DNA from: Nannocystis sp. RBIL2
GTDB lineage: Bacteria; Myxococcota_A; Polyangia; Nannocystales; Nannocystaceae
Assembly: GCF_026626745.1 (NCBI RefSeq)
Contig: NZ_JAPNJW010000001.1
Span: 972,311 to 1,036,310, forward strand
Reading direction: 5' to 3'
DNA: 64,000 bases
Below, in pieces: positions 76-42,492 of this stretch. The notes under the pieces were generated by a model. That model saw only the letters and a program-made list of their open reading frames with translations, had not been told where the DNA came from and made no database searches. The position numbers and the translations under genes are program-made. Within the stretch, counting starts at the first letter, position 1; every line of letters starts with the position of its first letter.

Positions 76-180
76 GCACATGCCCTCGAGGCCATGACTC
101 GAAGAACATGTCCATATGGGCATGCTCTTCGGAGCATGTCCTCGTCGACATGCTCCATGCGTCATGCCAGCGCGCTCATC
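76..180. repeat. GGACATGTCC-family 14-bp phased array (8 units)
   Basis: CATG at 78, 93, 107, 121, 135, 149, 163 (plus 156). Units are CATGYYC + 7 nt. Lies 3' of the beta-helix gene. Confidence 0.8.
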
Positions 181-351
181 ATCCATCCCACTCGCGCTCT
201 CGCCTGCTCATGCACCGACGCTCGCGGCCGGAAACAAAGGTGCATATATGTACCTTTGTCCGCCCAAACCAGCCCTTACGGCTCAAAAATTACCTCTTGT
301 CTCGCGAGCTCTCACCCGCGCCGCCGAGCGCCGGCCCGTCGACAGCCCGCC

Positions 352-2172
352 TCAAGACGGATCGCAGCCGAACGGCGGCAGCGTCGCCGCCGGCGTCTCG
401 GCCCCGCCCGTGACGCGCTCGGACGTCACGCGCGAGCCGCAGGCCCACGTCAGCGTCGGGCTGAAGCAGCGCACGCAGGACACGTCGCGGACCACAGCGT
501 CGACGCCCATGGCGACGTTGATCGCCCCCTCGCCGCCGGCGTTGCGCAGCTGCACGTGCTCGAACAGGTTGCCGCGGGCCTTCTCGTACAGGCGGATCGC
601 GTCCCACGTCCCGCGGCGATCGGTGGTCCCGAAGATCTGCACCGGGCGTTCGGCCGTGCCCTCGACGCGCAGCGAGCCGCCGCCGAACTCGCCGACCCCG
701 AGCGAGAAGCCGTCGTGGACGCGCAGCTTGGCGCCGGCGCGGATCGTCAGCGTCGCCTGGTTGTCGACCGAGACCGGGCGCTTGACCTCGATCGGCACCC
801 CGAAATCGTGCCACACCGCGTCCTTGCTGACCTCGCCGCCCTCGACCTGGACCGTCGTCGCCGCGTCGAGCTTGTTCTCGGCCGGGATCATCCCGAACAG
901 CTGCGGACTCACGTCGAAGGCCGGGTGCGAGCGCTCGAACGTGTTGTCGCGGAACTCGCCGAGGCGGACGTTCGCGCCCTGGAGCGTCACCCCGCCGCCG
1001 TTGTCGCGGAACGTGCAGCCCTTCGCGCTGAGGCGCGCCTCGTTGTTGGCGTAGACCACCCCGCGGTCGGAACGCTGGCCGCCGTACTCGAACACCACGT
1101 TGCTGAAGCTCGCGGTGGCCGAGCGGTAGAGGTTGACCCCGCGCCACGCGTGCGACGTCTCGCGCGTCGCCGACGTCAGCACGATCGGCTCCTTGCCCGC
1201 CGCCTCGGCGATGAGCGCCGCCGGGTGGTCGTAGCCGACCGTGAAGTACGCGTCGTCGTCGAACTTCAGGACTGTCCCCGGGGCCAGCTCGAGCATCGCC
1301 TCGTGCTTGTCGTCGGGGCCCTCGATCTCGATCACCCCGCCGATCACGAACGGCACCTTCGGCACGTCCCAGCGGGCGCGTTCGCGGATCATCCCGCCGA
1401 GCACGTGGATCACCGAGTCGGGCGGGAACGTGTTGTCGGGCGTCACCGACCCGGCCGAGCGGGCCGGCAGCAGCAGCGCCGGCGAGCTCACGCGCTCGAG
1501 CCGGTTGCCCTTGAAGCTGCTGACGTGGCCCTTCGACGTGACGTGGACCGCCACGTTCTGGCTGTCGCGCACCGTCGAGCCGTCGATCTTCACGTCGGTC
1601 GCCTGCACGTAGATCGCCCCGCGCAGGTCCGTACCGGCGAACTCGAGCACGAGCCCGGCGATCTCCGAGCCGTCGGCGTGGTCGTACAGCGCGATCCCCT
1701 TCCACGCCCCCGGCTTGGCCTGATCGCCCGCGGCCGTGAAGCGGACCGGCGACTCGGGCGTGCCGCGCACGTGCAGCGTCGCCGGGCGCTCGAAGCCGAC
1801 CGCCAGCTCGGCGTCGGGCATGAATTGCAGGGTCACCCCTGCCTCGATCGTCAGCGACCCGTTCTCGATCCGGTAGCCCGGGTGGACCGTCACCGACTTG
1901 CAGGCCGAGCCGATCACGCGGTCGACCTGCTCCGGCTCGCGGAGCGCCTCGGGGCAGTCGCTGACCTCCGGCCGGCGCGGCGCGGGCGCAGGCGCCTGCA
2001 CCCGGTCGGGCATGTTCGGGTTCGCCTCGACCTTCTGCGACTTCTGCTCGTCCGGTCCGCAAGCGAGCGCGACGGCCACGCACCCGAGCCCGATCTGGCG
2101 CAGGCCCGCGCCGGGACGTCGGCCACGCCGGCGCGCGGGCTCGGCAGCGGACGCAGCGGCGCGGGGACGCAT
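352..2172 (-). CDS. Right-handed parallel beta-helix repeat lipoprotein (pectate-lyase-like fold), secreted
   Basis: The 1259-aa six-frame ORF 352..4131 is real only in its C-terminal 606 aa. An ATG at 2172 starts MRPRAAAS..., followed by a signal/lipobox-like stretch (VAVALAC). Repeated beta-helix rungs are present (NVAVHV, GVVYANNEARL, GGVTLQGANVRL). The upstream 650 aa are Ala/Gly/Arg junk typical of a GC artifact. Confidence 0.6.
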   Translation of the reverse strand: MRPRAAASAAEPARRRGRRPGAGLRQIGLGCVAVALACGPDEQKSQKVEANPNMPDRVQAPAPAPRRPEVSDCPEALREPEQVDRVIGSACKSVTVHPGYRIENGSLTIEAGVTLQFMPDAELAVGFERPATLHVRGTPESPVRFTAAGDQAKPGAWKGIALYDHADGSEIAGLVLEFAGTDLRGAIYVQATDVKIDGSTVRDSQNVAVHVTSKGHVSSFKGNRLERVSSPALLLPARSAGSVTPDNTFPPDSVIHVLGGMIRERARWDVPKVPFVIGGVIEIEGPDDKHEAMLELAPGTVLKFDDDAYFTVGYDHPAALIAEAAGKEPIVLTSATRETSHAWRGVNLYRSATASFSNVVFEYGGQRSDRGVVYANNEARLSAKGCTFRDNGGGVTLQGANVRLGEFRDNTFERSHPAFDVSPQLFGMIPAENKLDAATTVQVEGGEVSKDAVWHDFGVPIEVKRPVSVDNQATLTIRAGAKLRVHDGFSLGVGEFGGGSLRVEGTAERPVQIFGTTDRRGTWDAIRLYEKARGNLFEHVQLRNAGGEGAINVAMGVDAVVRDVSCVRCFSPTLTWACGSRVTSERVTGGAETPAATLPPFGCDPS

Positions 2173-2247
2173 CGGCCGAGCATGCCACGCACGTGCGCAG
2201 ACACGCAAGGCGGACGAGCGGCCCTTCGGCGGTGCTAGACTTCGGCC

Positions 2248-3033
2248 GTGGCCTCCCGCAAGCCCGCGCCCGCCGTCACGGAGCCGACCATCCGTGTCCG
2301 CCGGATCCACCGCCGCGACCTCAACAAGGTGTGGGAGTTCCTCAAGCGCGTGTTCCGCTCGGTCAACCGCGAGACCGTCGAGTACCAGCGCCCCCGCACC
2401 AAGACCCGCTTCCTCGAGATCTACGAGGAGGAGGGCATCGAGCAGCTGCTGTTCGAGATCCACGAGGGCGACGCCCCGGTGATCGTCGGCTACGCCGAGT
2501 GCGCCTACGAGGTCATCGGCTCCGACAATTGGATCAACGAGCGCTACTTCGAGAGCCGCGACATGCGCCCGCTGTTCGTCGAGGAGATCGCCATCCACCC
2601 CGACTTCCAGGGCCGCGGGATCGGCAGCTTCGTCATCGAGCAGCTCGAGCACCTCGCCCGCGTGCGCGGCTGCACGCACCTCGTCCTCGAGGTCGCCGCC
2701 AACAACAAGCGCGCGCTCCAGTTCTACCGCGCCCGCAGCTTCTCCCAGATCGACGCCGCCATCTTCCTGGCCAAGAAGGTCGTCAGCGAGCCCGAGCTGC
2801 TGCCGCCCCGCACCCTCCGCAACAGCGGCCTCGAGGCGGCCCCGTCCGACCCGCCCGAGGCCGGGCCCGAGCCCGAGGCCGAGGAGGGCTCCGAGGACAT
2901 GTCCGAAACGACAGGTGCGGAAGCACCGGACCTCGAGGACATGCCCGAAGAGGCAGACGAGCCCGAGCCCGAGCCCCCAGCGCCCCCGGCCAAGCCCGCC
3001 CGCGCCCGCCGCTCGCGCCCCCGCAAGGCCTGA
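2248..3033 (+). CDS. GNAT family N-acetyltransferase with acidic Pro-rich C-terminal tail
   Basis: Acetyl-CoA binding motif region IAIHPDFQGRGIGSFVIEQL; the C-tail EDMSETTGAEAPDLEDMPEE is encoded by partial copies of the GGACATGTCC element. Confidence 0.75.
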   Translation: MASRKPAPAVTEPTIRVRRIHRRDLNKVWEFLKRVFRSVNRETVEYQRPRTKTRFLEIYEEEGIEQLLFEIHEGDAPVIVGYAECAYEVIGSDNWINERYFESRDMRPLFVEEIAIHPDFQGRGIGSFVIEQLEHLARVRGCTHLVLEVAANNKRALQFYRARSFSQIDAAIFLAKKVVSEPELLPPRTLRNSGLEAAPSDPPEAGPEPEAEEGSEDMSETTGAEAPDLEDMPEEADEPEPEPPAPPAKPARARRSRPRKA

Positions 3034-3117
3034 CGCCGCCACCCGGACGCCGAGCGCCTCGCTCGTCCGTCGCGCCGTGTCGCCGATCGCCGTCACCACG
3101 AAGCCGTCCGGCTGCCT

Positions 3118-3960
3118 GTGCGTCGCGTCCGCTGCTGTGTTAGCGTCCGCCGCGTGACCGAGCCGGCCCCAGCCCCGCACATCGAGGCCCGCGGCCTCGG
3201 CGTGCAGTTCGCGGGCGGCGTGCAGGCCCTGAGCGGCCTCGACCTCGTCGTCCGCCGCGGCGAGCTGCTCGCCCTCATCGGCCCCTCGGGCTGCGGCAAG
3301 TCGACCTTCCTGCGCGTGGCAGCCGGCCTCGCGCCCGCCAGCGCGGGCACCATCACAGTCGCGGGCGAGGCCCCCGAGCGGGCCCGGGCGCGCCGCGCGG
3401 TCGCCTTCGTGTTTCAGGATCCGACCCTGCTCCCGTGGCGCAGCCTGCACGCCAACGTCCGCCTCCCGCTCGAGCTCGCGCGCGCCCCGAAAGCCGAGCA
3501 GACCACCGCCGCCGACGCCGCGCTCGCGCTCGTCGGCCTGTCGGAGTTCGCCGCCGCCCCGCCGACTGCGCTCTCGGGCGGCATGAAGATGCGGGCCTCC
3601 CTGGCCCGCGCCCTCGTCACCCGGCCCGAGCTGCTCCTGCTCGACGAGCCGTTCGGCGCCCTCGACGAGCTCACGCGCGAGCGGCTCAACGACGAGCTGC
3701 TGCGCCTGTGGGAGCGCGACCGCTTCACCGCCCTGGCCGTCACCCACAGCGTCGCCGAAGCGGTCCTGCTCGGCGACCGCGTCATCGTCCTCTCCGGCCG
3801 CCCCGGCCGCGTGGTCGCCGACATCCCGATCGCCCTGCCGCGCCCGCGCCGCGCCGCCCTGATCGGCAGCCCCGAGTTCGCGGCGATCGCCGCCGACGTC
3901 CGCGCCCACTTGCGCGCCGCCGCCCCGCCTGACCCTTCGGACCTGCCTGTTCGGACCTGA
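3118..3960 (+). CDS. ABC transporter ATP-binding protein, NitT/TauT (SsuB/TauB-like) family
   Basis: Walker A GPSGCGKST, ABC signature LSGGMKMRASLARAL, Walker B LLLLDEP. The probable true start is the in-frame GTG at 3154 (VTEPAPAP). Confidence 0.85.
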   Translation: MRRVRCCVSVRRVTEPAPAPHIEARGLGVQFAGGVQALSGLDLVVRRGELLALIGPSGCGKSTFLRVAAGLAPASAGTITVAGEAPERARARRAVAFVFQDPTLLPWRSLHANVRLPLELARAPKAEQTTAADAALALVGLSEFAAAPPTALSGGMKMRASLARALVTRPELLLLDEPFGALDELTRERLNDELLRLWERDRFTALAVTHSVAEAVLLGDRVIVLSGRPGRVVADIPIALPRPRRAALIGSPEFAAIAADVRAHLRAAAPPDPSDLPVRT

Positions 3961-4020
3961 CCTCTCCGCCTGTCCCTTCGCACCTGTCCCTCCACACAAG
4001 TCCCTCGGGACAGCTCTCCC
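3931..4020. repeat. Degenerate CCTGTCC-variant 14-bp phased array
   Basis: gaccTTCGgacctgCCTGTTCggacctgaCCTCTCCgCCTGTCCcttcgcaCCTGTCCctccacaCAAGTCCctcgGGACAG. Overlaps the ABC ATPase stop and the ATPase-permease spacer. Confidence 0.6.
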
Positions 4021-4129
4021 GGCCGATCCCCGCCCCGCCGCCGCAGCCGGCCTTCCTCCTCCCCACATCTCCCCGCTCCCTCGCCTGGCGCCGGCACCTC
4101 GCCTCCTCCTCTCCTCTCTGCCTCCTCGC

Positions 4130-4918
4130 ATGTCCCTCGCATCGGCCGCTCGAGCCGCGCTCCCGCCGCTCCTCGTCTTCCTCGCCCTCCTCGGCCTGTG
4201 GCAGCTCGCCTGCAGCGCCCTGGCGCTGCCGGCCTACCTCGTGCCGACCCCGGCCGAGGTCGCACGCGAGGCCGCAGCCCACGTCGGCGAGCTCGCCCAG
4301 GCCGCGCTGCTGACCGCCCTCGGCGCGCTCGGCGGCCTCGGGGCCAGCCTCGTCGTCGGCGGCCTGGTAGCAGTCCTGTTCTCGCAGTCGCAGACGGCGG
4401 CGCGCAGCCTCTACCCGTACGCGATCTTCCTGCAGACCGTCCCGATCGTCGCCGTCGCCCCGCTGATCGTCGTGTGGTTCGGCACCGGCCTGCAGAGCGT
4501 CGTCCTCACCGCCGCGATCCTCAGCGTCTTCCCGATCATCACCAACGGCACCACCGGCCTCGTCCGCGTCGACCCGCAGCTGCTCGAGCTGTTCGCCATG
4601 AGCGACGCCTCGCGCCTGCAGCTGCTGCTCAAGCTGCGCCTGCCCGGCTCGCTGCCCTACTTCGTCGCCGGCGCCAAGATCAGCGGCGGCCTCGCGGTCA
4701 TCGGCGCCATCGTCGGCGAGTTCTTCGCCGGCTTCGGCGCCGACGAGCTCGGCCTCGGCGCCCTCATCCTCCAGACCTCCGGCCGCCTGCAGACCGCCTA
4801 CCTGTTCGCCGCGATCTTCACCGCCACCCTGCTCGGCCTGCTGCTGTTCGGCCTCGTCGCCCTGCTCGGCGAGCTCGCCCTCCGCCGCTGGCGCGGCCGC
4901 GAGCTCGCAGTCTCCTGA
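4130..4918 (+). CDS. ABC transporter permease (NitT/TauT family, SsuC-like)
   Basis: Six TM helices and an EAA-like loop; immediately downstream of the ATPase. Confidence 0.85.
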   Translation: MSLASAARAALPPLLVFLALLGLWQLACSALALPAYLVPTPAEVAREAAAHVGELAQAALLTALGALGGLGASLVVGGLVAVLFSQSQTAARSLYPYAIFLQTVPIVAVAPLIVVWFGTGLQSVVLTAAILSVFPIITNGTTGLVRVDPQLLELFAMSDASRLQLLLKLRLPGSLPYFVAGAKISGGLAVIGAIVGEFFAGFGADELGLGALILQTSGRLQTAYLFAAIFTATLLGLLLFGLVALLGELALRRWRGRELAVS

Positions 4919-4924
4919 CCTTTC

Positions 4925-4995
4925 GCGCATGTCTCCTCCGACATGCCCCATCCTTCATGCACTCGAGGACATGCTCGAACGAGCATGCTCCCTCA
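4925..4995. repeat. GGACATGTCC-family 14-bp phased array (5 units) between convergent genes
   Basis: CATG at 4927, 4942, 4956, 4970, 4984. Confidence 0.8.
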
Positions 4996-5448
4996 ACCTC
5001 GCCGCGGCACCACCGGTCCGACCGCGCGCACCCGCAGCGCGGTGAGCGGCGCCCCGCTGACGCGGTCGACCAGCACCGGCTCGATCGGCAGCCCCGTGGC
5101 GGCGTCCTCGAGCACTGTCGGCGGTGGGTCTTCGCGGGCGAACTCGTCGCCCCACTGCATCAGAGTCACGATCACCGGCCGCAGCCCCCGGCCCTTCGCC
5201 GTCGGCACGTACTCCTCGCGCGGCGGATGATCCTGATAGGACCGGCGCTCGAGGATTCCCGCGGCGACCAGGTGCTCCAGGCGGGCCGTCAACGTGGCCC
5301 GCGGGATCTGCAGCCGCGCCTGAAACGCCTCGAAGCGCGTCACCCCGAGCAGCGCGTCGCGCACGAGCAGCAGCGTCCACGGGTCACCGACGACGTCGAG
5401 CGCCCGCGCGATCGAGCACTGCATCCGGTCGAGTCGCTTGCGCCGCAC
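4993..5448 (-). CDS. HxlR family transcriptional regulator
   Basis: Winged-helix HxlR signature (ARALDVVGDPWTLLLVRD ... REEYVPTAKGRGL); the start may be the internal Met (MQCSIARAL, ~5424). Confidence 0.8.
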   Translation of the reverse strand: MRRKRLDRMQCSIARALDVVGDPWTLLLVRDALLGVTRFEAFQARLQIPRATLTARLEHLVAAGILERRSYQDHPPREEYVPTAKGRGLRPVIVTLMQWGDEFAREDPPPTVLEDAATGLPIEPVLVDRVSGAPLTALRVRAVGPVVPRRG

Positions 5449-5461
5449 GAGGCCCGTTGTA

Positions 5462-6838
5462 TCACGCCCGGGCCGGACCTGTCCGAAGGGGCAGCGAGCA
5501 CAGCGCGGTCGCCAAGCCGCCGGCGATCATCACCCACCACACCCGGTCGAACCGCGCCAGCGCGTCGGCCGGCCCGCTCGCCCCGGCAGTCAGCCCGATC
5601 GCCAGCGCCACCCCGAGCGTCCCCGCGAATTGGCGCAGCGCCTGGTGGACCGCCCCGCCGACCCCGAGGCGATTGGCCGGCAGCGCCTGGCCGACCACGC
5701 TCGACAGCTGCGGCAGGCACAGCGCCACCCCCGTCCCCGTCAGCAGCATCGACGGCAGATAGTCGATCGCGTAGTCGACCTCGGCCGACAGCATCAGCAG
5801 GCGCCACAGCCCTCCGAGCGCGAACGACAGCCCGCCGACGATAAGCAGCGGTCGCTGGCCGATCCGCGCCGCCAGCCGCCCGAACCGCGGTGACAGCACC
5901 GCCACCAGCAGCGGCCCGGGCGCCACGCCGAAGCCCGCCGCGAGGATCGACCAGTCCCACACCGCGGTGAGGAACAGGACGCTGGCCAGGAACATCGCAG
6001 TGAACGCCGCGCCGAACGTCAGCGTCGCCGCGTTGGCCCAGCGGAAGTTGCTCGCCGCGAACAGCGACAGATCGATCGTCGGCGCCCGCGTGCGCGCCTG
6101 ATGGAGCACGAACACCGCCAGGGTCGCCAGGCCGGCCACCAGAGTCGCCGCGGTCCGTTGCGACGTCCAGCCCCACGCCTCGCCGAGCACCAGCGCCAGA
6201 GTGATCAACACCGCCGCGAGCACCAGCAGCACCACCCCGAGCGGCGCCGGCAGCACGCTGTCGGGGTCGCGTGACTCGGCCAGTCGTCGGCGCCCGAGCA
6301 GCACGGTCACCAGCCCGACCGGCAGGTTGATGGCGAACACCCAGCGCCAGCCGCACGCCTCGATCAGCGCCGCGCCGAGCGTCGGCCCGACCGCCCCGGC
6401 CACCGCCCCCGTCGCGCCCCACACCGCCAGCGCCACCGGCAGCTTCTCGCGCGGCGTCGCCCGCATCACCAGCGCCAGCGACGAAGGCACCAGCGCCGCG
6501 CCGCCGGCCGCCTGCAGCACGCGCGCGGCCACCAGCAGCCCCGGAGTCGGCGCCGCCGCGCACAGCAGCGACGCCAGGGTGAATCCGATCGACCCGGCCA
6601 GGAACATCGCCCGATGCCCCCAGCGATCGGCGAGCCGCCCGAACGGCACCAGCGCGGCCGCGAACACGATCGTGTACGCGTTCAGCACCCACGACAGCTC
6701 GGCTGTCGGCACCGCCGGGAACGTCGCCGCGATCGACGGGAACGCCACGAACAGCACAGTCGTGTCGAGGAACACCGCGAACACGGCCAGGCTGGCCACG
6801 ACCAACGGGGACAGACGCATCTCCATGCGTTCAATCAT
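5462..6838 (-). CDS. MFS transporter, DHA2 (EmrB/QacA-like) family, 14 TM
   Basis: Typical MFS motifs (GRLADRWGHR, multiple TM helices). The ORF extends to 6898, but the likely start is MIERMEMRLSPL around 6838-6820. Confidence 0.8.
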   Translation of the reverse strand: MIERMEMRLSPLVVASLAVFAVFLDTTVLFVAFPSIAATFPAVPTAELSWVLNAYTIVFAAALVPFGRLADRWGHRAMFLAGSIGFTLASLLCAAAPTPGLLVAARVLQAAGGAALVPSSLALVMRATPREKLPVALAVWGATGAVAGAVGPTLGAALIEACGWRWVFAINLPVGLVTVLLGRRRLAESRDPDSVLPAPLGVVLLVLAAVLITLALVLGEAWGWTSQRTAATLVAGLATLAVFVLHQARTRAPTIDLSLFAASNFRWANAATLTFGAAFTAMFLASVLFLTAVWDWSILAAGFGVAPGPLLVAVLSPRFGRLAARIGQRPLLIVGGLSFALGGLWRLLMLSAEVDYAIDYLPSMLLTGTGVALCLPQLSSVVGQALPANRLGVGGAVHQALRQFAGTLGVALAIGLTAGASGPADALARFDRVWWVMIAGGLATALCSLPLRTGPARA

Positions 6839-6971
6839 TGAACGAATAATTTCCGGATCGCAAGCCCTCGCCGCGCGGATCCGCCCGACCCGATTCAACC
6901 GAACTCACGCGCCATCCCCTTGCCGATTCCATATGACGTCCATAATCTAAAAATCACCTCAGGAGCACACG

Positions 6972-8021
6972 ATGCGGTACAGGACATTCGGTCGTCGCAC
7001 AGGCTTACGCGTCTCCGAGCTCGCCCTCGGCACCGGCAACTTCGGCACTGGTTGGGGCCACGGCAGCGAGCCCGCCGAGGCGCGGCGGATCTTCGACGCC
7101 TACGCCGAGGCGGGCGGCAACTTCATCGACACCGCCGACACCTACCAGGTCGGCCAGTCGGAGCAGTTGCTCGGCGAGTTCCTCGCGGCCGAGCGCGACC
7201 GCTTCGTCGTCGCCAGCAAGTACACCCTCGGCGTCGGGGGCGGCCTGCACGCCACCGGCAACAGCCGCAAGACCATGATCGCCGCGCTCGAGGCCAGCCT
7301 GCGCCGGCTCAAGACCGACCGCATCGAGCTGTATTGGGTCCACTTCCCCGACGGCCTGACCCCGATCGATGAGATCGTGCGCGGCCTCGACGACCTCGCG
7401 CGGGCCGGCAAGATCCTCTACGGCGGCCTTTCGAACTTCCCCGCCTGGCGGGTCGCGCGAGGCGACGCGATCGCCGAGCTGCGCGGGTGGACCCCGCTCG
7501 CGGGCGTGCAGATCGAGCACAGCCTGGTCGAGCGCACCGGGGAGCGCGAGCTGCTGCCGATGGCCGAGGCGCTGGGGCTCGGCGCGGCCCTGTGGTCGCC
7601 GCTCGGCGGCGGCTTCCTCACCGGCAAGTACCGCACCAGCGACGAGGGCCGCCTCACCGGCCTCGGCATGCTCGTCCACACCGAGAAGACCGCGCGCGAG
7701 ACCGCCATCCTCGACGCCGTGGTCGCAGTCGCCGACGAGGCCGGCGTCGCCCCGACCCAGGTCGCCCTCGCCTGGTCGCTGGCCCACGCCGATCGCTCCA
7801 CGACCGCGCGGATCCCCATCCTCGGCCCGCGCACCCGCCCACATCTCGACGCCGCCCTCGCCGCGCTCACCCTCGAGCTCGCGCCGGCCCAGCTCGCCCG
7901 CCTCGACGCCGCCAGCGCGATCGCCCTCGGCACCCCGCACCAGCAGGTCGAGAGCAGCCGCCCGCGGATCGCCGGCGGCCAGCCCGACAGCATCGTCCCG
8001 CCGCCGATCCCCGTCGCCTGA
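6972..8021 (+). CDS. Aldo/keto reductase
   Basis: AKR motifs (LGTGNFG, IDTADTY, LYWVHFPD); good RBS aggagcacacgATG. Confidence 0.9.
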   Translation: MRYRTFGRRTGLRVSELALGTGNFGTGWGHGSEPAEARRIFDAYAEAGGNFIDTADTYQVGQSEQLLGEFLAAERDRFVVASKYTLGVGGGLHATGNSRKTMIAALEASLRRLKTDRIELYWVHFPDGLTPIDEIVRGLDDLARAGKILYGGLSNFPAWRVARGDAIAELRGWTPLAGVQIEHSLVERTGERELLPMAEALGLGAALWSPLGGGFLTGKYRTSDEGRLTGLGMLVHTEKTARETAILDAVVAVADEAGVAPTQVALAWSLAHADRSTTARIPILGPRTRPHLDAALAALTLELAPAQLARLDAASAIALGTPHQQVESSRPRIAGGQPDSIVPPPIPVA

Positions 8022-8169
8022 ACCGGCGGGCGGAGCCCACGTGCCGCGCTCCGGTCGGGTCGCACTCACCTGCGGGGAAGCGCACCACGCCGCGAGAGAC
8101 CGTCTTCGCGGAGCTCCGCCGCGCGAGCCCGCGAGCTTCTGCCTCGCACTGCCCGCCGGACGCCACACT

Positions 8170-8230
8170 TCACATGTCCCCGAGGACATGCTCTTTTATT
8201 CATGTCCTCGAGACCATGCCCCCATGGATG
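8170..8230. repeat. GGACATGTCC-family 14-bp phased array (4-5 units) upstream of SBP gene
   Basis: CATG at 8173, 8187, 8201, 8215, 8223; palindromic core ATGTCCccgaGGACAT. Confidence 0.8.
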
Positions 8231-8291
8231 CGCCCCGTGGCACGGTCGAGGCCGCTGGTGCGTCCGTGGCGCTCGGGTGTACGCTTCCGGC

Positions 8292-9293
8292 ATGCGCGCT
8301 CCGCTCCGACCGGTCCCGCCGCGCCCGCGGTTCGGCGCCCTCGTCCGCCTGCTCGTCGCCTGCCTCGGCTTGCTGCTCGTCACCTGCGGCCGCCAGCAGG
8401 ACTCGCAGCAGGTGCGGATCGCCCTCAACTGGTTCCCCGAGGTCGAGCACGGCGGCTACTTCGCCGCCCTCGTCCACGGCTACTACAAGGAAGAGGGCCT
8501 CGACGTCGAGCTCGTGCCCGGGCGGCCCGACGCCCCGGTCCTGCCGCAGGTGGCCGCGGGTCGCGTCCAGTTCGGCATCGCCGACGCCAGCGAGATCCTG
8601 CTCGCGCGGGCCCAGGGCGCCCCGGTGGTCGCGCTCGTCCCCGGCCTGCAGAAGAGCCCGCGCTGCATGATGGTCCACGAGGCCTCGGGCATCACCGACC
8701 TCAACGACCTCCAGACCGGCAGCGTGCAGCTGAGCGTGCGCGAGCCGTTCGCCAGCTTCCTGCGCGCCGAGTATCGCTGGCCCGAGGCGGTCCAGGTCGT
8801 CCCCTACAGCGGCAGCGTCGCCCCGTTCCTGCTCGACCCCAAGGCCGTCCAGCAGGCCTACGTCTTCAGCGAGCCGATCATCGCCGAGTCGCAGGGCGCC
8901 AAGGTCCGCTGCATCCTCGTCGCCGACCTCGGCTTCAACCCCTACGCCAGCGTCCTCGTCACCTCCGAGTCGCTGCTGGCGAGCCGCCCCGAGCTGGTCG
9001 CCCGCGTCGTCGACGCGACCCTGCGCGGGTGGGAGCAGTACCTGCGCGACCCGAGCGCCGCCAACGCCGAGATCCGCGCCCGCAACACCGAGCTCAGCCC
9101 CGAGATCCTGGCCAAGGGCGCCGCCGCCCTCAAGCCGCTGGCGGCCCCCGAAGGCGGCACGATCGGCGCGATCGACCCGGCCCGCTGGAAGACGCTCGCC
9201 GATCAGCTCGTCGACCTCGGCCTCCTGAAGGCCGGCGCCGTCGACCCGGCCACCGCCTACAACCTCGAGATCGGCCGCAAGCCGGCGAAGTAG
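8292..9293 (+). CDS. ABC transporter substrate-binding protein (NMT1/THI5-like, SsuA/ThiY-type) with signal peptide
   Basis: ATG at 8292 gives MRAPLRP...LLVACLGLLLVTCG with a signal/lipobox; NMT1-like periplasmic domain. The ORF track start at 8202 lies inside a repeat array and is unlikely. Confidence 0.8.
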   Translation: MRAPLRPVPPRPRFGALVRLLVACLGLLLVTCGRQQDSQQVRIALNWFPEVEHGGYFAALVHGYYKEEGLDVELVPGRPDAPVLPQVAAGRVQFGIADASEILLARAQGAPVVALVPGLQKSPRCMMVHEASGITDLNDLQTGSVQLSVREPFASFLRAEYRWPEAVQVVPYSGSVAPFLLDPKAVQQAYVFSEPIIAESQGAKVRCILVADLGFNPYASVLVTSESLLASRPELVARVVDATLRGWEQYLRDPSAANAEIRARNTELSPEILAKGAAALKPLAAPEGGTIGAIDPARWKTLADQLVDLGLLKAGAVDPATAYNLEIGRKPAK

Positions 9294-9304
9294 CCGCCGG
9301 ACCC

Positions 9305-9362
9305 TTCGGGCATGCTCCGAGCGACATGTCCTGCAGGACATTTCTTTAAAGACATGCCCGAT
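9305..9362. repeat. GGACATGTCC-family 14-bp phased array (4 units) downstream of SBP gene
   Basis: CATG at 9311, 9325, (CATT 9339), 9353; ATGTCCtgcaGGACAT; AT-rich spacer ttctttaaaga. Confidence 0.8.
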
Positions 9363-9609
9363 CGTTGTCCACGCCGAGAGCTGCCAGATCCTCGCGCGCG
9401 CCGCCGCCCTCCTGATCGCCATCCACCTCGACCCCCTGGCCGTCATCCGCGGTTTGCCCGCGGCCGCCGTCGTCCCGCCCCGGGCCTTGCCGCACGACCT
9501 GTCCTCAGGGACAGCTTCGAGCCCGCCGCCCCGCCCACGCGGCCGCGCGACCCCCTCGTCCACACGCCGGCCCGCGCGGCCGCGACCTTCGCCGGCCGGC
9601 AGTTGACGA
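9361..9609 (+). pseudogene. Truncated duplicate of an internal segment of the downstream gene 9653..11014
   Basis: Positions 9368-9480 are ~90% identical to 9928-10040. Translation gives ...SCQILARAAALLIAIHLDPLAVIRGLP..., matching ...SCPILARAAALLIAIHLDPLAVARGLP... downstream. It starts directly at the edge of repeat array 9305-9362 and has no start codon. Confidence 0.35.
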
Positions 9610-9652
9610 CCCCCGCCTGCCCGGACACGATCACCCGGGCCAGGACTCTCGC

Positions 9653-11014
9653 TTGCTCGCCCTCGCCGCGCTGGTGTTCGTTCGCCTCTCGTCCGCCGCG
9701 CCGCCGGTCGCCGCGCCGCCGGTCGACCTGACCTGGCAGGCCCCGCGCGAGTGCCCCGACGGCGACGACGTCCTGCTCATGGTCGCCGGCCTGCTGCGTC
9801 AGCCGACCGGCGACGACGCGCCAGGTCGCCCCGGCGCCCGCGGGCTCATCACCCGCGCCGGCGCGGCATGGGAGCTGCGGCTCGTGCTGCGCGGGCGGGG
9901 CAGCGACTACCGTCGCACCGTCCGTGCCGAGAGCTGCCCGATCCTCGCGCGCGCCGCCGCCCTCCTGATCGCCATCCACCTCGACCCCCTGGCCGTCGCT
10001 CGCGGTTTGCCCGCGCCCGCCGTCGTCCCGCCCGCGCCCCCGGCCCTGCCGCCCGACCTGTCCCCGGGGACAGCCACGATCCCACCGCCGGGCCCCTCCG
10101 ATCTGTCCCCGCGGACATCTGCGACCTCCGCGTCCGGTACGGCCCCGCCCGCCGACCTGTCCTCGCGGACATCCACGACCTCCGCGTCCGGTACGGCCCC
10201 GCCCACCGACCTGTCCTCGCGGACATCCAGCGCTCCGCCGTCCGAGCTACCCGCGCGGCCGGTCCTGCCGCCTGACCCGCTCGCGTCCGACCCGTCTCGC
10301 GCCCCCTCGATCCCCGCCGCTCCCGACCTGTCCTTCCGGCCAGCCCCGCCTCCCTCCCCCGCAGGTCGGCTCGCCTCGCCCGCGCCCCCGCGACCGCCCG
10401 CCGGCCCGTCGCGCCCGCTCGCCCCCGAGGACATGTCCGAAGAGACAGCAGAGTTCACCGCCGCGCGAACGCCCCGGCCAGCCGCACCGCCGCGCGTGCT
10501 CGGCCACCTCCGCCTCGAAGGCGGCCTCGACGTCGGCGTCCTCCCTGGCGCCGGGGGCCTCGTCGGCCTGTTCGGCGGCGTCACCTTGCCGCGCCTGCGC
10601 CTCGAGGCCGGCCTCGTCGGCGCGCCTGGCCGGATCCTCCCCGGCCTCAGCGACCGCCCCGGCGGCCGCTTCGACCGCCTCGGCGGGGTCGTGCGGATCT
10701 GTCCGACCTGGCTCCCGCGCCCGGCGCTCGCCGTCCTGCTGTGCGCCGGCTTCGAGGTCGGCGCGCTCCACGGCGTCGCCCGCGACGTCAGCGTCCCGAG
10801 CCCGCGCTGGGCCCCGTGGGCCAGCTTCTTCCTCGGCCCCGCGCTGCGCTGGCGGGTCGCCGGCCCGCTCGGCCTGTGGCTGGCCGTCGAGGGCCTCGTG
10901 GCCGTCAACCGCCCGATCTTCACCGTCGGCGCTGAAGAGGTGTACCGCGGCGGCCGCGCGGGCCTGCGCACCACTTTCGGCCTCGACCTGCAATTCGGGC
11001 CACGGAATCGCTGA
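9653..11014 (+). CDS. Hypothetical secreted Pro/Ser-rich protein with 18-aa tandem repeats
   Basis: TTG start followed by a signal-peptide-like N-terminus; contains 54-bp tandem repeats (DLSPRTSATSASGTAPPA x ~3); the C-terminal part has non-junk composition. Confidence 0.5.
   Translation: MLALAALVFVRLSSAAPPVAAPPVDLTWQAPRECPDGDDVLLMVAGLLRQPTGDDAPGRPGARGLITRAGAAWELRLVLRGRGSDYRRTVRAESCPILARAAALLIAIHLDPLAVARGLPAPAVVPPAPPALPPDLSPGTATIPPPGPSDLSPRTSATSASGTAPPADLSSRTSTTSASGTAPPTDLSSRTSSAPPSELPARPVLPPDPLASDPSRAPSIPAAPDLSFRPAPPPSPAGRLASPAPPRPPAGPSRPLAPEDMSEETAEFTAARTPRPAAPPRVLGHLRLEGGLDVGVLPGAGGLVGLFGGVTLPRLRLEAGLVGAPGRILPGLSDRPGGRFDRLGGVVRICPTWLPRPALAVLLCAGFEVGALHGVARDVSVPSPRWAPWASFFLGPALRWRVAGPLGLWLAVEGLVAVNRPIFTVGAEEVYRGGRAGLRTTFGLDLQFGPRNR
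10100..10235 (+). repeat. 54-bp tandem coding repeats (x2.5), each beginning with a CTGTCCnnnnGGACAT element copy
   Basis: gatctgtccccgcggacatctgcgacctccgcgtccggtacggccccgcccgcc / gacctgtcctcgcggacatccacgacctccgcgtccggtacggccccgcccacc / gacctgtcctcgcggacatccagcgc...; further single copies at 10055 and 10325. Confidence 0.75.
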
Positions 11015-11035
11015 CCCGCGGAGACAGACCCGATC

Positions 11036-12238
11036 GTGCCGCTCCCCCAGGAAGCACTCCCCGACTTCGCCGCCGTCTACCGCGCGAACTACGGCTTCGT
11101 CTGGCGCACCATCCGGCACCTCGGCGTCGATCTGGCGCGGGTCGACGACGCGGTCCAGGACACCTTCCTGGTCGTCTACCGCCGCCTGCCCGAGTTCGCC
11201 GGGCGTGCCGCGGTGCGCACCTGGTTGTTCGAGATCGCGCGGCGCATCGCCAGCCGTTACCGGCGCAGCGCCGCGCGCGAGGAGCCGCGCCGCTGCGCTT
11301 TGAGCGAGGCCGAGGTCCTCGCCCCCGCGGTCGAGGCCCCCGTGGAGCAGGCCGAGGCCGCCGCGCTCCTCCAGGGCTTCCTCGACGGCCTCGACCGCGA
11401 TCAGGCCGTCGTCTTCGTCATGACCGAGCTCGAGCAGTGGCAGGCCCCCGAGATCGCCGCCGAGCTCGGCGTCAACCTCAACACCGTCTACTCGCGCCTG
11501 CGCGCCGCTCGCCGCGAGCTCGACCGCATGGTCCGCCGCCTCGACGCCCGCGACCGCCGGGCCCGGCCGCGCCAGGGCGCCCACGTGCTCGCCGCCCTGG
11601 TCGTGGTCGGCCCGCCCTGGCCGCCGCCGTGGCGCCTGGCCGCCGCGCGCGATCCGGCTGTCGTCGGGGACATGCTCGCAAAGACATGGTCGATAAGCCA
11701 TGTCGCAACGCCGGCCGCGATCGCCGGCGGCAGCCCGGTCGTCGGCCTCTCGGTCGCCAGCGCCGGCCTCTTCGCAGTGCTGGCGTTCGGCCGCCCTGCA
11801 CCCGAGCCGCCGCAGTCGGTCGTCGCCGCGGCCCACGAGCCCGCGCCCGCTCAGTCGCACTCGCCACCGCAGTCGGTCGCGCTCGCGGCCGCAGCCGCAC
11901 CGATCCCGCCCGCCTCCGCCACGGCCGCTCCCCCCGCGCCCGCGCGACGCTCGACCCCTCGCGGCGAGGAGCCCTCGCTGGCCGCCGAGCTCACCCTCGT
12001 CGAGTCGATCCGCGCCGCCCTGCTCGCCGCCGACCACCGCACCACCCTCGAGCTGGTCGCCCGCCACCAGCGGCGCTTCCCCGCCGGCGTGTTCGCCCAG
12101 GAGACCGCCGCCGCCGCCATCGAGGCCCGCTGCCGCCTCGGCGACCACGACCGCGCCCGCCGCGACGCCGCCGCGTTCGTCGCCCGCTGGCCCGCCTCCG
12201 CCCTGGCCCCGCGGGTGTCCGCGTTGTGCCGCTCGTGA
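11036..12238 (+). CDS. ECF (sigma-70 family) RNA polymerase sigma factor, fused in-frame to an anti-sigma-like extension
   Basis: Sigma region 2 (DAVQDTFLVVYRRL, RTWLFEIARR) and region 4 (TELEQWQAPEIAAELGVNLNTVYSRLRAAR) lie in the first ~175 aa. After that, with no stop, come a predicted TM helix (SPVVGLSVASAGLFAVLAF) and an Ala/Pro-rich tail. A repeat element copy sits at the junction (11665-11710). Confidence 0.65.
   Translation: MPLPQEALPDFAAVYRANYGFVWRTIRHLGVDLARVDDAVQDTFLVVYRRLPEFAGRAAVRTWLFEIARRIASRYRRSAAREEPRRCALSEAEVLAPAVEAPVEQAEAAALLQGFLDGLDRDQAVVFVMTELEQWQAPEIAAELGVNLNTVYSRLRAARRELDRMVRRLDARDRRARPRQGAHVLAALVVVGPPWPPPWRLAAARDPAVVGDMLAKTWSISHVATPAAIAGGSPVVGLSVASAGLFAVLAFGRPAPEPPQSVVAAAHEPAPAQSHSPPQSVALAAAAAPIPPASATAAPPAPARRSTPRGEEPSLAAELTLVESIRAALLAADHRTTLELVARHQRRFPAGVFAQETAAAAIEARCRLGDHDRARRDAAAFVARWPASALAPRVSALCRS
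11665..11710. repeat. GGACATGTCC-family phased array (3 units) inside ECF sigma-fusion ORF
   Basis: CATG at 11671, 11685, 11699. Confidence 0.65.
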
Positions 12239-12271
12239 GCGCGGCGCTCCGTGGCCCGCGACGCGGTCTCG

Positions 12272-12395
12272 GCCGACCTGTCCCTTGCGACCTGTCCATT
12301 CATATCATGTCTGAAGGGACACCCGTCCCTCCAGACATCTCATCCCACGACCGGCGCCACGCGACCTCGCCTTGCATGTCCCTGCGGACAGGCAC
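12272..12395. repeat. Degenerate GGACATGTCC/CCTGTCC-family array in the sigma / FG-GAP intergenic region
   Basis: gaCCTGTCCcttgcgaCCTGTCCattcatatCATGTCTgaagGGACAcccgtccctccagaCATCTCatcc ... gCATGTCCctgcGGACAGG. Confidence 0.65.
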
Positions 12396-13944: not shown

Positions 13945-14005
13945 CACAGTCATGTCCATAAATACATGTCTTTTATGACATACTCATAAAGACATGTCAT
14001 GGAGC
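13945..14005. repeat. GGACATGTCC-family 14-bp phased array with AT-rich spacers
   Basis: CATG at 13951, 13965, (CATA 13979), 13993; spacers ataaata / ttttatga / ctcataaaga. Confidence 0.8.
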
Positions 14006-14219
14006 TCGAGGTCCGTGCGCTCGGACCCGCGTCGGACCTGCTGGTCGCGCGCGCCCGCGGCTCACGGAACTCGGGCGCGGGCGCCATCCCCGTCGAAGTC
14101 GCCGACGTCGAAGTCGACCGCGCCGCGGTGGACGGGGTCAGCGGGTGACCGCGAAGCCGTCGACCTGTAGGGCGGCTCCCGTCTCTGCGCGCAATCGTCC
14201 GAACCCGCTCGCCACGCGA

Positions 14220-14292
14220 AAGGACATGTCGGACAGGGCATGTCGATAGAGACATGCCCGAATCGACATGTCCCCATCGACATGCCCTCGAG
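14220..14292. repeat. GGACATGTCC-family 14-bp phased array (5 units) abutting the SNF2 stop codon
   Basis: CATG at 14225, 14239, 14253, 14267, 14281, exactly 14 bp apart. Confidence 0.85.
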
Positions 14293-14293
14293 T

Positions 14294-17245
14294 TCACTCG
14301 AGCAGCGCCAGCAGGTCGCTGCGGGTGATCGCCGCCGCCCCCGCCGCGTCTTCGAGCGCCGCCTCGGCGATCGCCCGCTTGCGCGCCTGCAGGGACAGGA
14401 TCCGCTCCTCCACCGTCTCCTCGGCCACCAGCCGGTGCACGATCACCGGGCGCTCCTGGCCGATGCGGTGGGCGCGGTCGGCCGCCTGGTCTTCGACCGC
14501 GGGGTTCCACCACGGGTCGAGCAGGAACACGTGGTCGGCCGCCGTCAGGTTGAGGCCCGTGCCGCCGGCCTTGAGCGAGATCAGCATCACCGGCGGCCCG
14601 TCCGGGTCCTGGAACCGGTTCACCACCCCGGCGCGATCGCGGGTCGAGCCGTCGAGGCGGCAGAACGGCAGCCCCGCCGCCTGCAGCCCCGGCTCGCACA
14701 GGTCGAGCAGGCTGGTCCACTGCGAGAACACCAGCGCCTTGTGGCCCTCGGCGATCGCCTCGGTCAGGGTCTCGAGCAGCAGCTCGAGCTTCGACGAGCG
14801 CGTGGCCGACTGGCCCGGCACCAGCGCCGCGTGGCAGGCCGCCTGGCGCAGGCGCAGCAGCGCCTCGAGGGCCGCGAGCACCCCGCCGCCGGCCTGCAGC
14901 TGGGCCACCACTTCCTCGTGCGTGGCCGCCCGCACCGCGTCGTAGACGGCCCGCTCGCGCGCGTCGAGCGTGCAGCGCAGCACCACCTCGGTGCGCGGCG
15001 GCAGCTCGCGCGCCACCTCTTGCTTGCGCCGGCGCAGCACGAACGGCGCGATCCGCCGCCGCAACGCCCGCGCCGCCGCCTGGTCGCCGTCGCCGATCGG
15101 CCGGCCGAAGCGCTCCTGGAAGTCCGCGCGCCCGCCGAGCAGCCCCGGGTTGATGAAGTGGATCTGGCTCCACAGCTCGTCGAGGCGGTTCTCCACCGGC
15201 GTGCCCGTCATCGCCAGCCGCCAGTCGGCCTGCAGCCCGAACGCCGCCCGCGCGACCTGGCTCTCGGGGTTCTTGATCGCCTGCGCCTCGTCCAGGATCA
15301 CCGCGTCCCAGCGCTCGCCGGCCAGCGCCTCGGCGTCGAGCCGCAGCAGCGCGTAGCTGGTGAGCGTGAGGTCGGCCTGCGGATCGAGGCGTCGCTTCGG
15401 CCCGTGATACACGCTGACCCGAAGGCCAGGTCGGAACTTCTCCGCCTCCGCCGCCCAGTTGTGGATCACGCTGGTCGGCGCGACCACCAGAGTCCGGCCT
15501 CGCACCGCGCACAGCGCCTGCAGCGTCTTGCCGAGGCCCATGTCGTCGGCCAGCAGCGCGCCGAGCCCGGCCTCGCGCAAGAACGCCAGCCAGTCGACGC
15601 CGCGCCGCTGGTACGGCCGCAGCTCGACCTGCAGGTCGGCCGGCAGACGCGTCTCGGGGATCGCCTCGAAGCCCTCGACCAGCGCCGCCAGCCCCGCCAG
15701 CTCGGGCGGCGGCGGGTGGTCGAGCGCGCGGCACAGCTCGGCCAGCGCCGGCCGGGCCCACGTCGCCGGCTCGCCGCCCTGCTCGCGCGCCGCCAGCAGC
15801 AGCGTCACCTCCGAGCCGAACCGCGACAGCCAGTCGACCGGCAGCGGCGCGACCCCGCCGTCGTCGAGCACCACCTCGGTCGCGCCCGCCTGCCACGCCT
15901 CGAGCACCCGGCGCGCGTCCGCCTGCGAGACATGTCCCGAAGAACCTGTCTCGAAGGCAATGCCCAATCGGCCACCCTCGCCGGCGATCATGCGGGCCGC
16001 CAGCGGCCCCTTGCGCACGAACTCGCGGTGCGACTCGCCGGCGATCTCGCCGCCCTCGAACCCGCGCAGCGCCTCGGCCAGGCCGACCGCCAGCGGCCCG
16101 ACGGCGCTGGTGGTGCGCCCGAACTGCAGCCCGAGCTCGCTCAGCCGGCGCACCAGCGACGCCTCGGCGAGCGCGTCGCGGCGCGGCACCTCGCGCCCGC
16201 GGATCACCAGCCGCCCGGCCTCGACCCGCGCCGCCTCGGGTGTCCCGTAGACCAGGACCGGAAGGACAGACATGCCCGTGCCCGCGCGCCCGACTTCGAA
16301 CAGCACCCGCGGTCGCGCGTCGGACAGCACCGGCAGGCGGTCGGTCTTCTCCTTGAAGGCCTTGACCCGCGCGCGCAGGGCCGGGATGGCCTCGGCCACC
16401 AGCTCGCCCGCGCGCTCGGGCGAGAACTGCAGCCCCACGCGCAGCTCGGCCGCCTCCTTGGGCCCGATGCCGCCGTTGTCGAAGCAGCGCAGCACGTCGC
16501 CGCACAGCACTACCCCGCTGGCCGCGAACACCTCGGTGATCGTCGGGTCGCGGACGATGTACAGGCGGAAGCCCTTGCCGCCCTCGAACGCCGCCACCCG
16601 CCCGTGGTAGCCGGCCGGCTCGGCCCCGGCCTTGATCCTCTTGCCGTCGAGCGTGATGTCCTCGCAGCCGGCCAGCGCCGGCAGCAGCTTGCGCGTGATC
16701 ACCGGCGCCAGCGGACCGCGCTTGTAGATCCCCAGCGCCCCCTCGACCTCGAAGTCGGCCGCGGTCGCCACGATCCCCGGCCCCTCGACCTTGCCGCCGG
16801 TGATCGCCGCCAGGCTGTAACCGAGCGGCGTCTCCTTGCTCTCGGGACCTGTCCCTTCGGACACACGCACCCGCACCAGCTCGAGCGCGCCCTCGGCCCG
16901 GCGCAAGCGATACCCGACCCGACCCGCGCGCTCGCTGCCGCGCGGCATCGCCTCACCGGCCTCGACCGCGCGCTGGAGGGCGATCGTCGCCGCCGCCACG
17001 TGGAAGCAGCACTCGCCGGCGTCGTCGCAGTCGCAGCTCCACTCGGCGTCGCCGGGGTACAGCGCGACCGTCGGGCTCTTGCCCGCGCCCTTGATCGCGA
17101 CCCGCAGGACCACCTCGTCGCGCTCGCGCCGCACCCCCGCGACGGCCCCCGCGCGCGCGAGCTCGACCCCGCGAGACCAATCGCGGGGGCTGCACGCGGC
17201 GCGCACTGCATCGAGGAGAGCTCGCACGGGGCGGTCGCCTAGCAC
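14294..17245 (-). CDS. SNF2-family DEAD/DEAH helicase with N-terminal SWIM zinc finger
   Basis: SWIM CxC...CxH ([15 protein letters not shown]); SNF2_N ([20 protein letters not shown]); helicase C ([39 protein letters not shown]). Confidence 0.85.
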
Positions 17246-18771: not shown

Positions 18772-19005
18772 CTACGTCCCCTTCGGCCCCACGACCTCGC
18801 CGGTCTCCGGATCGACAGGGAACCATGCGCCCGCGACCTCGTGACAGGCGTGCCTCAGCTCCGCGTAGACCTCGGGGGTGATCCACGTGTCGACCTCCTG
18901 CGGGTCGCGCCAGTGCATCGGGTTGTGGGCGAACGCGTTCAGGTGCTCGAGCAGGCGATAGAGCCGTTCCGCAGCCTGTTCATCCAGACATGCTCTAACG
19001 GCCAT
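18772..19005 (-). CDS. Small hypothetical protein (77 aa)
   Basis: Native-like composition (W, H, Y, F, E rich): ...HNPMHWRDPQEVDTWITPEVYAELRHACHEVAGAWFPVDPETGEVV. The N-terminus overlaps repeat array 18972-19065, so the true start may be internal. Confidence 0.35.
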   Translation of the reverse strand: MAVRACLDEQAAERLYRLLEHLNAFAHNPMHWRDPQEVDTWITPEVYAELRHACHEVAGAWFPVDPETGEVVGPKGT

Positions 19006-19065
19006 GCCCCTTCGAGCATGCCCTTTCGAGCATGCCTATCAGGACATGCCTCAAGCGACAGGCGA
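18972..19065. repeat. CATGCC-variant 14-bp phased array (6 units)
   Basis: CCTGTTC 18975; CATG at 18989, 19003, 19017, 19031, 19045. Confidence 0.85.
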
Positions 19066-42419: not shown

Positions 42420-42492
42420 AGTGTCCAAATGGACATGTTTGAATCAGCATGTCCATCCGGACATTTCTGAAAGGACATGTCCCGATCCGCAG
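42420..42492. repeat. GGACATGTCC-family 14-bp phased array (4-5 units) downstream of HxlR
   Basis: CATG at 42434, 42448, (CATT 42462), 42476; ATGTCCatccGGACAT; AT-rich spacers. Confidence 0.85.

Follow-up and report, generated by a model that had tools for sequence, protein, structure and literature searches.

In a stretch of 64,000 nucleotides from Nannocystis sp. RBIL2 (contig NZ_JAPNJW010000001.1, positions 972,311 to 1,036,310 of the forward strand; here called the window, G+C content 71.6 %), the genes of a NitT/TauT-type ATP-binding cassette (ABC) importer are separated by three other genes. These code for an HxlR-family regulator, a DHA2-type major facilitator superfamily (MFS) efflux pump and an aldo/keto reductase (AKR), and they stand between the ATPase and permease genes on one side and the gene of the substrate-binding protein (SBP) on the other. 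Comparison with related loci supports the view that this block split an ATPase-permease-SBP operon in the ancestor of the cultured Nannocystis species. The short arrays of a 14-bp repeat with the core CATG (CATG-14 arrays) that are found at the block would be copies of a generic repeat family located mostly just past the stop codons that end co-directional gene runs, and not the ends of the insertion. To the insertion and the generic nature of the arrays taken together, the function of the arrays not included, we assign a probability of about 0.7.

The split transporter operon

The proteins of the window were compared by tblastn with 80 loci containing SBP homologues. ATPase, permease and SBP genes are contiguous in 35 of these loci from several phyla, the order being seen in Planctomycetota, Gemmatimonadota, Latescibacterota, Lysobacterales and Sandaracinaceae as well as in the nearest Nannocystis metagenome-assembled genome (MAG). 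The latter (L006), from an uncultured member of the genus, is the closest outgroup; its three contiguous genes share 68-79 % amino acid identity with those of the window, and the gap between permease and SBP measures 88 bp. In contrast, the HxlR, MFS and AKR genes lie between permease and SBP in the cultured species N. exedens, N. punicea, N. bainbridge, N. radixulma and N. pusilla. The same three genes are inserted at this place in a sixth lineage (L085, 81-84 % identity), and the insertion has a size of 3.3-3.7 kb in the five cultured species and one Logan contig. Since the split order is common to the five cultured species and L085 and the contiguous order is kept in L006, the insertion is older than the divergence of the cultured species and younger than their separation from the L006 lineage.

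An earlier reading of the window from its letters and open reading frames (ORFs) alone, the sequence-only reading, had proposed that an ABC operon was interrupted by the block and that the SBP belongs to the ATPase and permease upstream. Both proposals are borne out by L006 and the 34 other contiguous loci, in which the block is absent and the SBP homologue directly follows the homologues of ATPase and permease. In the course of events suggested here, an ancestral NitT/TauT-type ATPase-permease-SBP operon would have been split by a 3.3-kb insertion before the cultured Nannocystis diverged. The reverse polarity, with an ancestral split order and contiguous operons formed by deletion, or an SBP unrelated to the upstream ATPase and permease, could draw on the 39 of the 80 loci that have neither ATPase nor permease nearby. 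The contiguous operon is common and not universal, which counts against an ancestral operon. However, the contiguous order extends across the five groups named above and the nearest Nannocystis MAG, and the inserted MFS and HxlR genes bear a foreign signature, so that both variants of this alternative appear extremely improbable.

All gene calls of the sequence-only reading were upheld by Pfam and NCBIfam. On the plus strand, the ATPase (3118-3960; Pfam ABC_tran, 2.1e-31) is followed by the permease (4130-4918; BPD_transp_1, 4.9e-22; SaoP/SsuC-like by NCBIfam). After the block comes the NMT1/SsuA-like SBP (8292-9293, plus strand; NMT1, 2.4e-37, and synteny), whose best matches belong to Nannocystis (N. 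pusilla, 97 %; N. exedens, 92 %). ATPase, BPD_transp_1 permease and NMT1/SsuA-type SBP are of matching subfamilies, as expected for a NitT/TauT-type importer operon. The best NCBIfam matches of the ATPase are nitrate, sulfonate and taurine ATPases, each under its equivalog cut-off; as all equivalog scores remain below cut-off, they single out no substrate for the transporter. Within the block, the minus strand carries the MFS pump (5462-6826, 455 amino acids, EmrB/QacA-type) and, as second gene of the MFS-HxlR module, the regulator (4993-5448; Pfam HxlR, 5.1e-20). The pump passes TIGR00711 with 236.7 bits against a cut-off of 230.2, and its start was set to the ATG at 6826 from the conserved alignment and the lengths of homologues. 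The AKR gene (6972-8021, plus strand; Aldo_ket_red, 4.7e-64) is divergent from the module.

A variable island of 2-4 kb is found between the genes of the GNAT protein (2248-3033, plus strand; Pfam/NCBIfam) and the ATPase in L002, L003, L004 and L085, whereas the window, N. exedens and N. pusilla lack it. The island of L085 (2620-5968) contains genes for Biotin_lipoyl and SIR2/TPR proteins and two small ORFs on the minus strand. Its variability among the lineages marks the neighbourhood as plastic.

Origin of the MFS-HxlR module

Among the top 120 homologues of the MFS pump, the matches from outside Nannocystis are 63-75 % identical and every named one belongs to the Actinomycetota (Acidimicrobiales, Ilumatobacter, Actinomarinicola). 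The three Acidimicrobiales-type contigs L081, L083 and L084 carry the MFS gene followed by a co-directional HxlR gene, whose product is 63 % identical to the HxlR protein of the window. By comparison, the flanking ABC genes reach only 45-63 % identity with their best relatives outside Nannocystis. Directly next to the start codon of the MFS gene is a perfect palindrome of 17 bp, CGTTCAAT-C-ATTGAACG (6828-6844), which is conserved in Nannocystis and represents a putative HxlR operator. In L081 the same palindrome, GTTCAATCATTGAA, abuts the MFS ATG just as in the window, and a variant is located at the MFS start in L083 and L084. Named homologues confined to Actinomycetota, the shared gene order and the shared palindrome point to a foreign origin of the two genes. 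Thus, the MFS-HxlR module and its operator were probably acquired horizontally from an Acidimicrobiia-like actinobacterium: in sequence comparison the closest relatives (70-75 % identity for the pump, 63 % for HxlR) are found in a distant phylum, where gene order and cis-element are conserved as well. A search of a paper library for such an HxlR-MFS transfer yielded nothing relevant.

According to this proposal, the insertion would be built around an efflux module of two genes, one for a DHA2 MFS pump and, after it, one for the HxlR regulator of the pump, and this module would have brought its own operator-like palindrome; the AKR gene would lie divergently beside it, with a conserved promoter region in common. 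Two points weigh against a foreign origin of the block as a whole. The direction of the MFS-HxlR transfer is read from the breadth of the distribution and from sparse source names. Furthermore, the AKR, which is 100 % identical to a protein of Nannocystis sp. RBIL2, belongs to a slowly evolving family, and its next matches are about 70 % identical and come from Chondromyces, Binatia and Burkholderiales, groups that point to no single source.

The divergent region common to MFS and AKR is strongly conserved. On its plus strand, a block rich in invariant positions among six to seven Nannocystis lineages contains a sigma-70-like candidate promoter for the AKR gene (TTGCCG, 17-nt spacer, TAATCT; 6920-6948), and an AGGAG ribosome-binding site is located at 6962-6966. 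Upstream of the SBP gene, 40 nt (8252-8291, plus strand) are nearly invariant, with about 30 invariant columns across seven lineages, and a −10-like TACGCT ends 7 nt before the ATG. This suggests a promoter of its own for the SBP gene, perhaps giving rise to a leaderless mRNA; the gene stranded by the insertion would now have a conserved upstream block of its own, probably its promoter. A sigma-54 promoter at this place was discarded, because GG and GC are 14 nt apart and not 12.

The MFS-HxlR pair resembles other horizontally acquired regulator-efflux modules in that it is self-contained, self-regulated and apparently moved between phyla together with its operator. It differs from them in having landed inside an operon, between permease and SBP, in being fixed throughout the genus and in having no recognisable vehicle.

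Structure and census of the CATG-14 arrays

The repeating unit comprises 14 bp: a 10-bp palindrome RRR-CATG-YYY (consensus GGA-CATG-YCC) and a variable spacer of 4 nt, the bases of which are unconstrained and rather A+T-rich. In the window, 33 pairs of CATG are found at a distance of 14 nt, 23 at 28 and 18 at 42, against none or one at 13, 15 and 16. With a softened position-weight scan, 20 Markov shuffles gave no array, while the window gave 12 and contains at least this number. The arrays consist of three to seven units and are located at 76-169, 4923-4992, 8168-8223, 9306-9361, 11668-11705, 13948-13999, 14222-14287, 15928-15965, 18972-19051, 42431-42482, 44075-44112 and 55176-55241, with two extra runs of two units at 44170-44232. 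The unit profile is strand-symmetric, and oriented arrays have no G-U strand bias. Near-identical full-length units, as in a minisatellite, are not a feature of the family, because the spacers differ within the arrays; simple repeats of that kind did turn up in scans of viral and metagenomic sequences.

The first array (76-169), with seven units, lies 186 nt downstream of the stop codon of a minus-strand gene (352-2172), whose frame has a G+C content at third codon positions (GC3) of 0.96 and whose counterpart in L085 codes for a beta-helix protein. The overlapping plus-strand ORF 94-2238 has no Pfam match and is probably spurious. Degenerate units lie at 12260-12330 and 63240-63368, behind two other gene ends; their core is CCTG or CAGG (GACCTGTCC, GGACAGT), they can form hairpins and some keep the 14-nt phase. 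These units suggest that the half-site TGTCC/GGACA matters besides CATG, and that a count based on CATG underestimates the family.

A pair of exact or near-exact GGACATGYCC sites 42 nt apart at 2895-2947 was rejected as an array. It is coding sequence (GAG-GAC-ATG, Glu-Asp-Met) in the acidic C-terminal tail of the GNAT protein and coding-conserved in all lineages; it may be a coincidence or equally an array absorbed into the gene. Another array (11668-11705, three units, 42 nt) lies inside the ORF of an ECF-type sigma factor (11036-12238, plus strand; Pfam/NCBIfam), between the sigma domains and a C-terminal extension, with high GC3 in the same frame on both sides. Its position is matched in N. 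pusilla, N. bainbridge (four units) and L085 (two units).

The arrays at the block

None of the three arrays at the block has an assigned strand. The left one (4923-4992, five units) fills the entire 74-bp convergent gap from the permease stop to the HxlR stop; its orthologues in N. pusilla and N. bainbridge have five units in the same register, and its RNA fold reaches z-scores of −5.2 on the plus and −4.4 on the minus strand. The right one (8168-8223, four units) lies between AKR and SBP, at 152 nt from the stop of the former and about 70 nt from the start of the latter. Its first two units form a hairpin followed by CTCTTTTATT, and a terminator-like site (8173-8190) with a T-rich tail is present on the plus strand; the array and its T-rich second spacer occur in all seven lineages. 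The last array (9306-9361, four units, of which the third is degenerate with CATT) begins 13 nt past the SBP stop and contains a hairpin (9326-9341) followed by TTCTTTAAAG (RNA fold z −4.6). In N. pusilla (L005, about 9640-9830), a tandem repeat of about 26 bp (gcgagcctgcgagcctccgcccc...) with about six copies lies between the AKR stop and the right array; the window has no such repeat.

The sequence-only reading had placed repeat arrays on both sides of the block and a third one behind the SBP gene, and all three are indeed present. The repeated unit it had given, GGACATGTCC, has no exact copy in any of them; the six exact copies of this 10-mer in the window are all found elsewhere. Moreover, it had described the block as precisely bracketed, which is true of the left side, where the array fills the gap, and fails on the right, where 152 nt separate the array from the AKR stop.

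In the same reading, the arrays were regarded as termini or recombination sites of an element that carried HxlR, MFS and AKR into the operon. Consistent with this are the presence of arrays at both block edges with a 21-nt stretch in common at 86 % identity (repeat pairs D8/I2), the plasticity of the neighbourhood with its island between GNAT and ATPase, and the fact that dispersed repeats can be recombination substrates. However, the same arrays are found after numerous other, unrelated genes, both in the window and in the genomes of relatives. In the window alone they occupy nine or more unrelated sites, and the shared cgaGGACATGctc is simply the consensus of the family. The right array keeps its distance from the AKR stop, and the third lies outside the block, after SBP. 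No recombinase, integrase or transposase was found among the Pfam matches for 94-12238 or in the annotated syntenic contig L085. A search for target-site duplications or terminal repeats in 4700-8400 returned the array units (D8, I2) and chance G+C-rich matches, though in an old insertion such traces may have been lost. The donor-like contigs are free of arrays. Composition reveals no anomaly (G+C content 0.66-0.76 in the block and 0.69-0.79 in the flanks, GC3 0.90-0.95), a test of little power since the donor-like contigs have a similar G+C content of 0.68-0.73. Taken together, these data make it very unlikely that the arrays are the ends of an element, and the claim that they mark its junctions is not sustained. 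Recombination between dispersed arrays may nevertheless have aided the integration.

Distribution and genomic placement

Each of the six Nannocystis loci has arrays, some at orthologous and some at non-orthologous places, and about 35 metagenomic contigs of high G+C content have them too. In one of these contigs (L161), a protein has its closest matches in a Myxococcales MAG (74 %) and N. pusilla (68 %), which places this contig among Nannocystaceae relatives. No arrays are present in the Acidimicrobiales contigs or in L006, L007, L008, L014, L015 and L067, and 1.19 Mb of outgroup loci contain only five pairs of CATG at a distance of 14 nt. A search of a paper library that covered the motif, Nannocystis repeats and myxobacterial REPs found no description of such arrays and returned papers on p53 or other irrelevant ones. 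The CATG-14 arrays are thus apparently an undescribed repeat family of the cultured Nannocystis and related uncultured Nannocystaceae.

Phased CATGs with a 14-bp step and diverged spacers are also found in five phage contigs from IMG/VR (L092, L094, L114, L123 and L125; G+C content 0.46-0.47). Their flanks are asymmetric, (A/T)AT(A/T)CATG, and they look like direct iterons and not like palindromes. A scan of viral sequences for five phased CATGs mostly returned perfect tandem repeats, unlike the arrays of Nannocystis.

Within the window, arrays are present in four of seven convergent gaps, four of about 25 tandem gaps and none of five divergent gaps. Most of them begin 3-30 nt past a stop codon; in Nannocystis and its metagenomic relatives, 48 of 66 arrays are located at most 60 nt downstream of a stop under conservative gene calls. 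Their place is behind the final gene of long co-directional runs, for example those ending at 13942, 42409 and 55163 on the plus strand and at 14294, 19051 and 55265 on the minus strand, and no array is found in the short junctions inside these runs. Two array-free convergent gaps carry ordinary G+C-rich hairpins, and two other gaps carry degenerate units with a CCTGTCC core.

The edges of the block are gene 3' ends, a convergent gap on the left and the end of the AKR transcription unit on the right, and this usual place of the family explains why arrays are found there. The insertion would have created two new transcription-unit ends, which family copies occupy as they do elsewhere. We infer that the insertion came first and that its new boundaries were then taken up by arrays, which did not bring it about.

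Conservation and folding

Three orthologous arrays of five to six units were compared in three species each. Their CATG cores are 100 % conserved without a single indel, whereas the spacers are only 20-50 % identical at their variable positions (+4/+5 within a unit of 14 nt). Detection by in-phase CATG is an ascertainment bias that inflates the apparent conservation of core and phase. Even so, neutral decay hardly seems to account for the register and unit number kept at orthologous sites.

All arrays fold far better than shuffled sequences (z −3.3 to −7.4). At 14215-14293 the minus strand forms a long perfect hairpin of −46.8 kcal/mol, and 55164-55264 contains two stems of 13-15 bp. In the scanned region from 1 to 20 kb, a hairpin combined with a T-tract, as in a canonical intrinsic terminator, was found only at 8173-8200 and 9326-9351. 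An Rfam scan gave no match on any array. Covariation of hairpins appeared weakly positive in a non-independent set (p about 0.015). The signal was gone in the outer flanks and also in 42 independent arrays, in which the complementarity of adjacent units (137 spacers) shows no excess over the prediction from the consensus.

What may read the arrays

The invariant core, the exact spacing of 14 bp, the strand-symmetric unit profile and the absence of covariation suggest a sequence-specific, oligomerising protein on each unit rather than RNA structure alone. With 14 bp making up about 1.33 turns of the helix, dimers on consecutive units would wind around the DNA. That a protein reads the arrays at this fixed step is a tentative proposal. 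We consider it more likely than pure RNA hairpins or neutral REP-like passengers, and the three readings are partly compatible. A role of the arrays as bidirectional punctuation at transcription-unit ends, as terminator or insulator, is plausible at odds not quite even. In its widest form, the proposal would be a genomic punctuation system of the Nannocystaceae: dimers would sit on RRRCATGYYY and polymerise in 14-bp steps at the ends of transcription units, thereby stopping or insulating convergent transcription or recruiting a topoisomerase or nucleoid protein. Thousands of sites per genome, a number extrapolated from about one array per 5 kb, would be served in this way, and new boundaries would gain arrays. 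This complete scheme is speculative and, as a whole, rather doubtful.

Several observations weigh against the punctuation proposal. The bias of detection has already been mentioned, and short out-of-phase runs exist at 44092-44232. The arrays at 11668-11705 and 15928-15965 lie within ORFs, which is unexpected for a terminator. Most oriented arrays are without a U-tract and hence not canonical intrinsic terminators. Finally, all functional statements about the arrays are inferences drawn from sequence.

Alternatively, the arrays could act purely as RNA and without a dedicated protein. Adjacent units would pair as hairpins with a stem of 10 bp and a loop of 4 nt, and these would end transcription or shield the 3' ends of mRNAs in the manner of REP elements in E. 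coli. The folding of all arrays far above shuffles, long perfect hairpins such as those at 14215-14293 and 55164-55264, the hairpins with T-tract at 8173 and 9326 and the location at 3' ends speak for this reading. However, an RNA would tolerate other cores and other loop lengths, while the core is always CATG and neither loop-length variation nor an indel is seen across species; adjacent units do not covary beyond the consensus, and oriented arrays have no G-U strand bias. RNA action alone thus appears unlikely. Loading of Rho, which would fit a pyrimidine-C motif every 14 nt, was set aside, since the arrays pair strongly with themselves and the invariant CATG would be left unexplained.

The arrays might also be selfish or neutral repeats, of REP/REPIN or MITE type or 14-bp minisatellites spread by slippage, which accumulate at 3' ends as they are harmless there. 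Their bias towards 3' ends and convergent gaps is that of REP/BIME elements, unit numbers differ between species, with arrays gained and lost, and some arrays (18972-19051 and several metagenomic ones) contain near-identical neighbouring units. Orthologous arrays that remain in register with intact cores and spacers of 20-50 % identity argue instead for purifying selection or continuing homogenisation. In addition, neither a transposase nor a RAYT gene turned up in the loci and contigs examined. We regard a selfish or neutral nature of the arrays as quite unlikely.

Comparison with known systems

REP/BIME elements and CATG-14 arrays are both abundant, short, palindromic, extragenic and clustered, lie past stop codons, in convergent gaps and at operon ends, and form RNA hairpins; in extragenic placement, enrichment at 3' ends, palindromy and clustering the arrays conform to this class. 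REPs lend stability to the mRNA upstream of them and serve as binding sites of gyrase and IHF. They are, however, imperfect palindromes of 20-40 nt with variable spacing, a GTAG foot and a RAYT transposase. In contrast, the CATG-14 unit has 14 bp, an invariant 4-bp core and a strict phase, without GTAG in the unit profile or a RAYT in the regions examined.

Tandem operator arrays for oligomerising dimers are known from the metboxes of MetJ (8-bp palindromes), the heptads of the omega protein and the tetramer boxes of ParG. Like these, the CATG-14 arrays present two to seven copies per site of a short core, a palindrome or a tetramer, which recurs at one exact spacing and has free flanks. The known operator arrays occur at few promoters or centromeres, whereas the CATG-14 arrays occur about once per 5 kb at gene 3' ends and in none of the divergent promoter regions examined. 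We know of no protein that binds them.

With intrinsic terminators, including bidirectional ones, the arrays share the position directly past stop codons, the hairpin potential on both strands and, in two cases, a T-rich tract. Most arrays are different in having no U-tract, and neither repetition nor phasing nor a fixed core is needed for termination. Uptake sequences such as the DUS of Neisseria and the USS of Haemophilus are short motifs read by a protein, present in thousands of copies and often arranged as inverted pairs that serve as terminators behind genes. The arrays are likewise often behind genes; DUS and USS, however, are not phased arrays, and to our knowledge no link between Nannocystis and competence has been described.

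Other features of the window

The region 9400-11000, between the third array at the block and the ECF sigma factor gene, has a G+C content of 0.77-0.79, and the GC3 criterion gives no confident gene there. At the syntenic position, L085 encodes a PDZ protein and a protein of 530 amino acids without Pfam matches. A tRNA gene (29634-29705, minus strand) is the sole match in the window above the Rfam gathering threshold.

Biological meaning

The split of the operon is a clear case of ordinary operon remodelling, in which a foreign, self-regulated efflux module was apparently fixed in the middle of an importer operon and the SBP gene stranded by it appears to have acquired its own promoter. The arrays matter more than the split, since a phased, invariant repeat stands behind a large share of the transcription units and is kept in register across species. 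Terminators and gene-boundary signals of myxobacteria are poorly defined. If the arrays are read by a protein, they would represent a new kind of chromosome-wide boundary element, which could be used as a terminator or insulator part for engineering Nannocystis, a producer of natural products.

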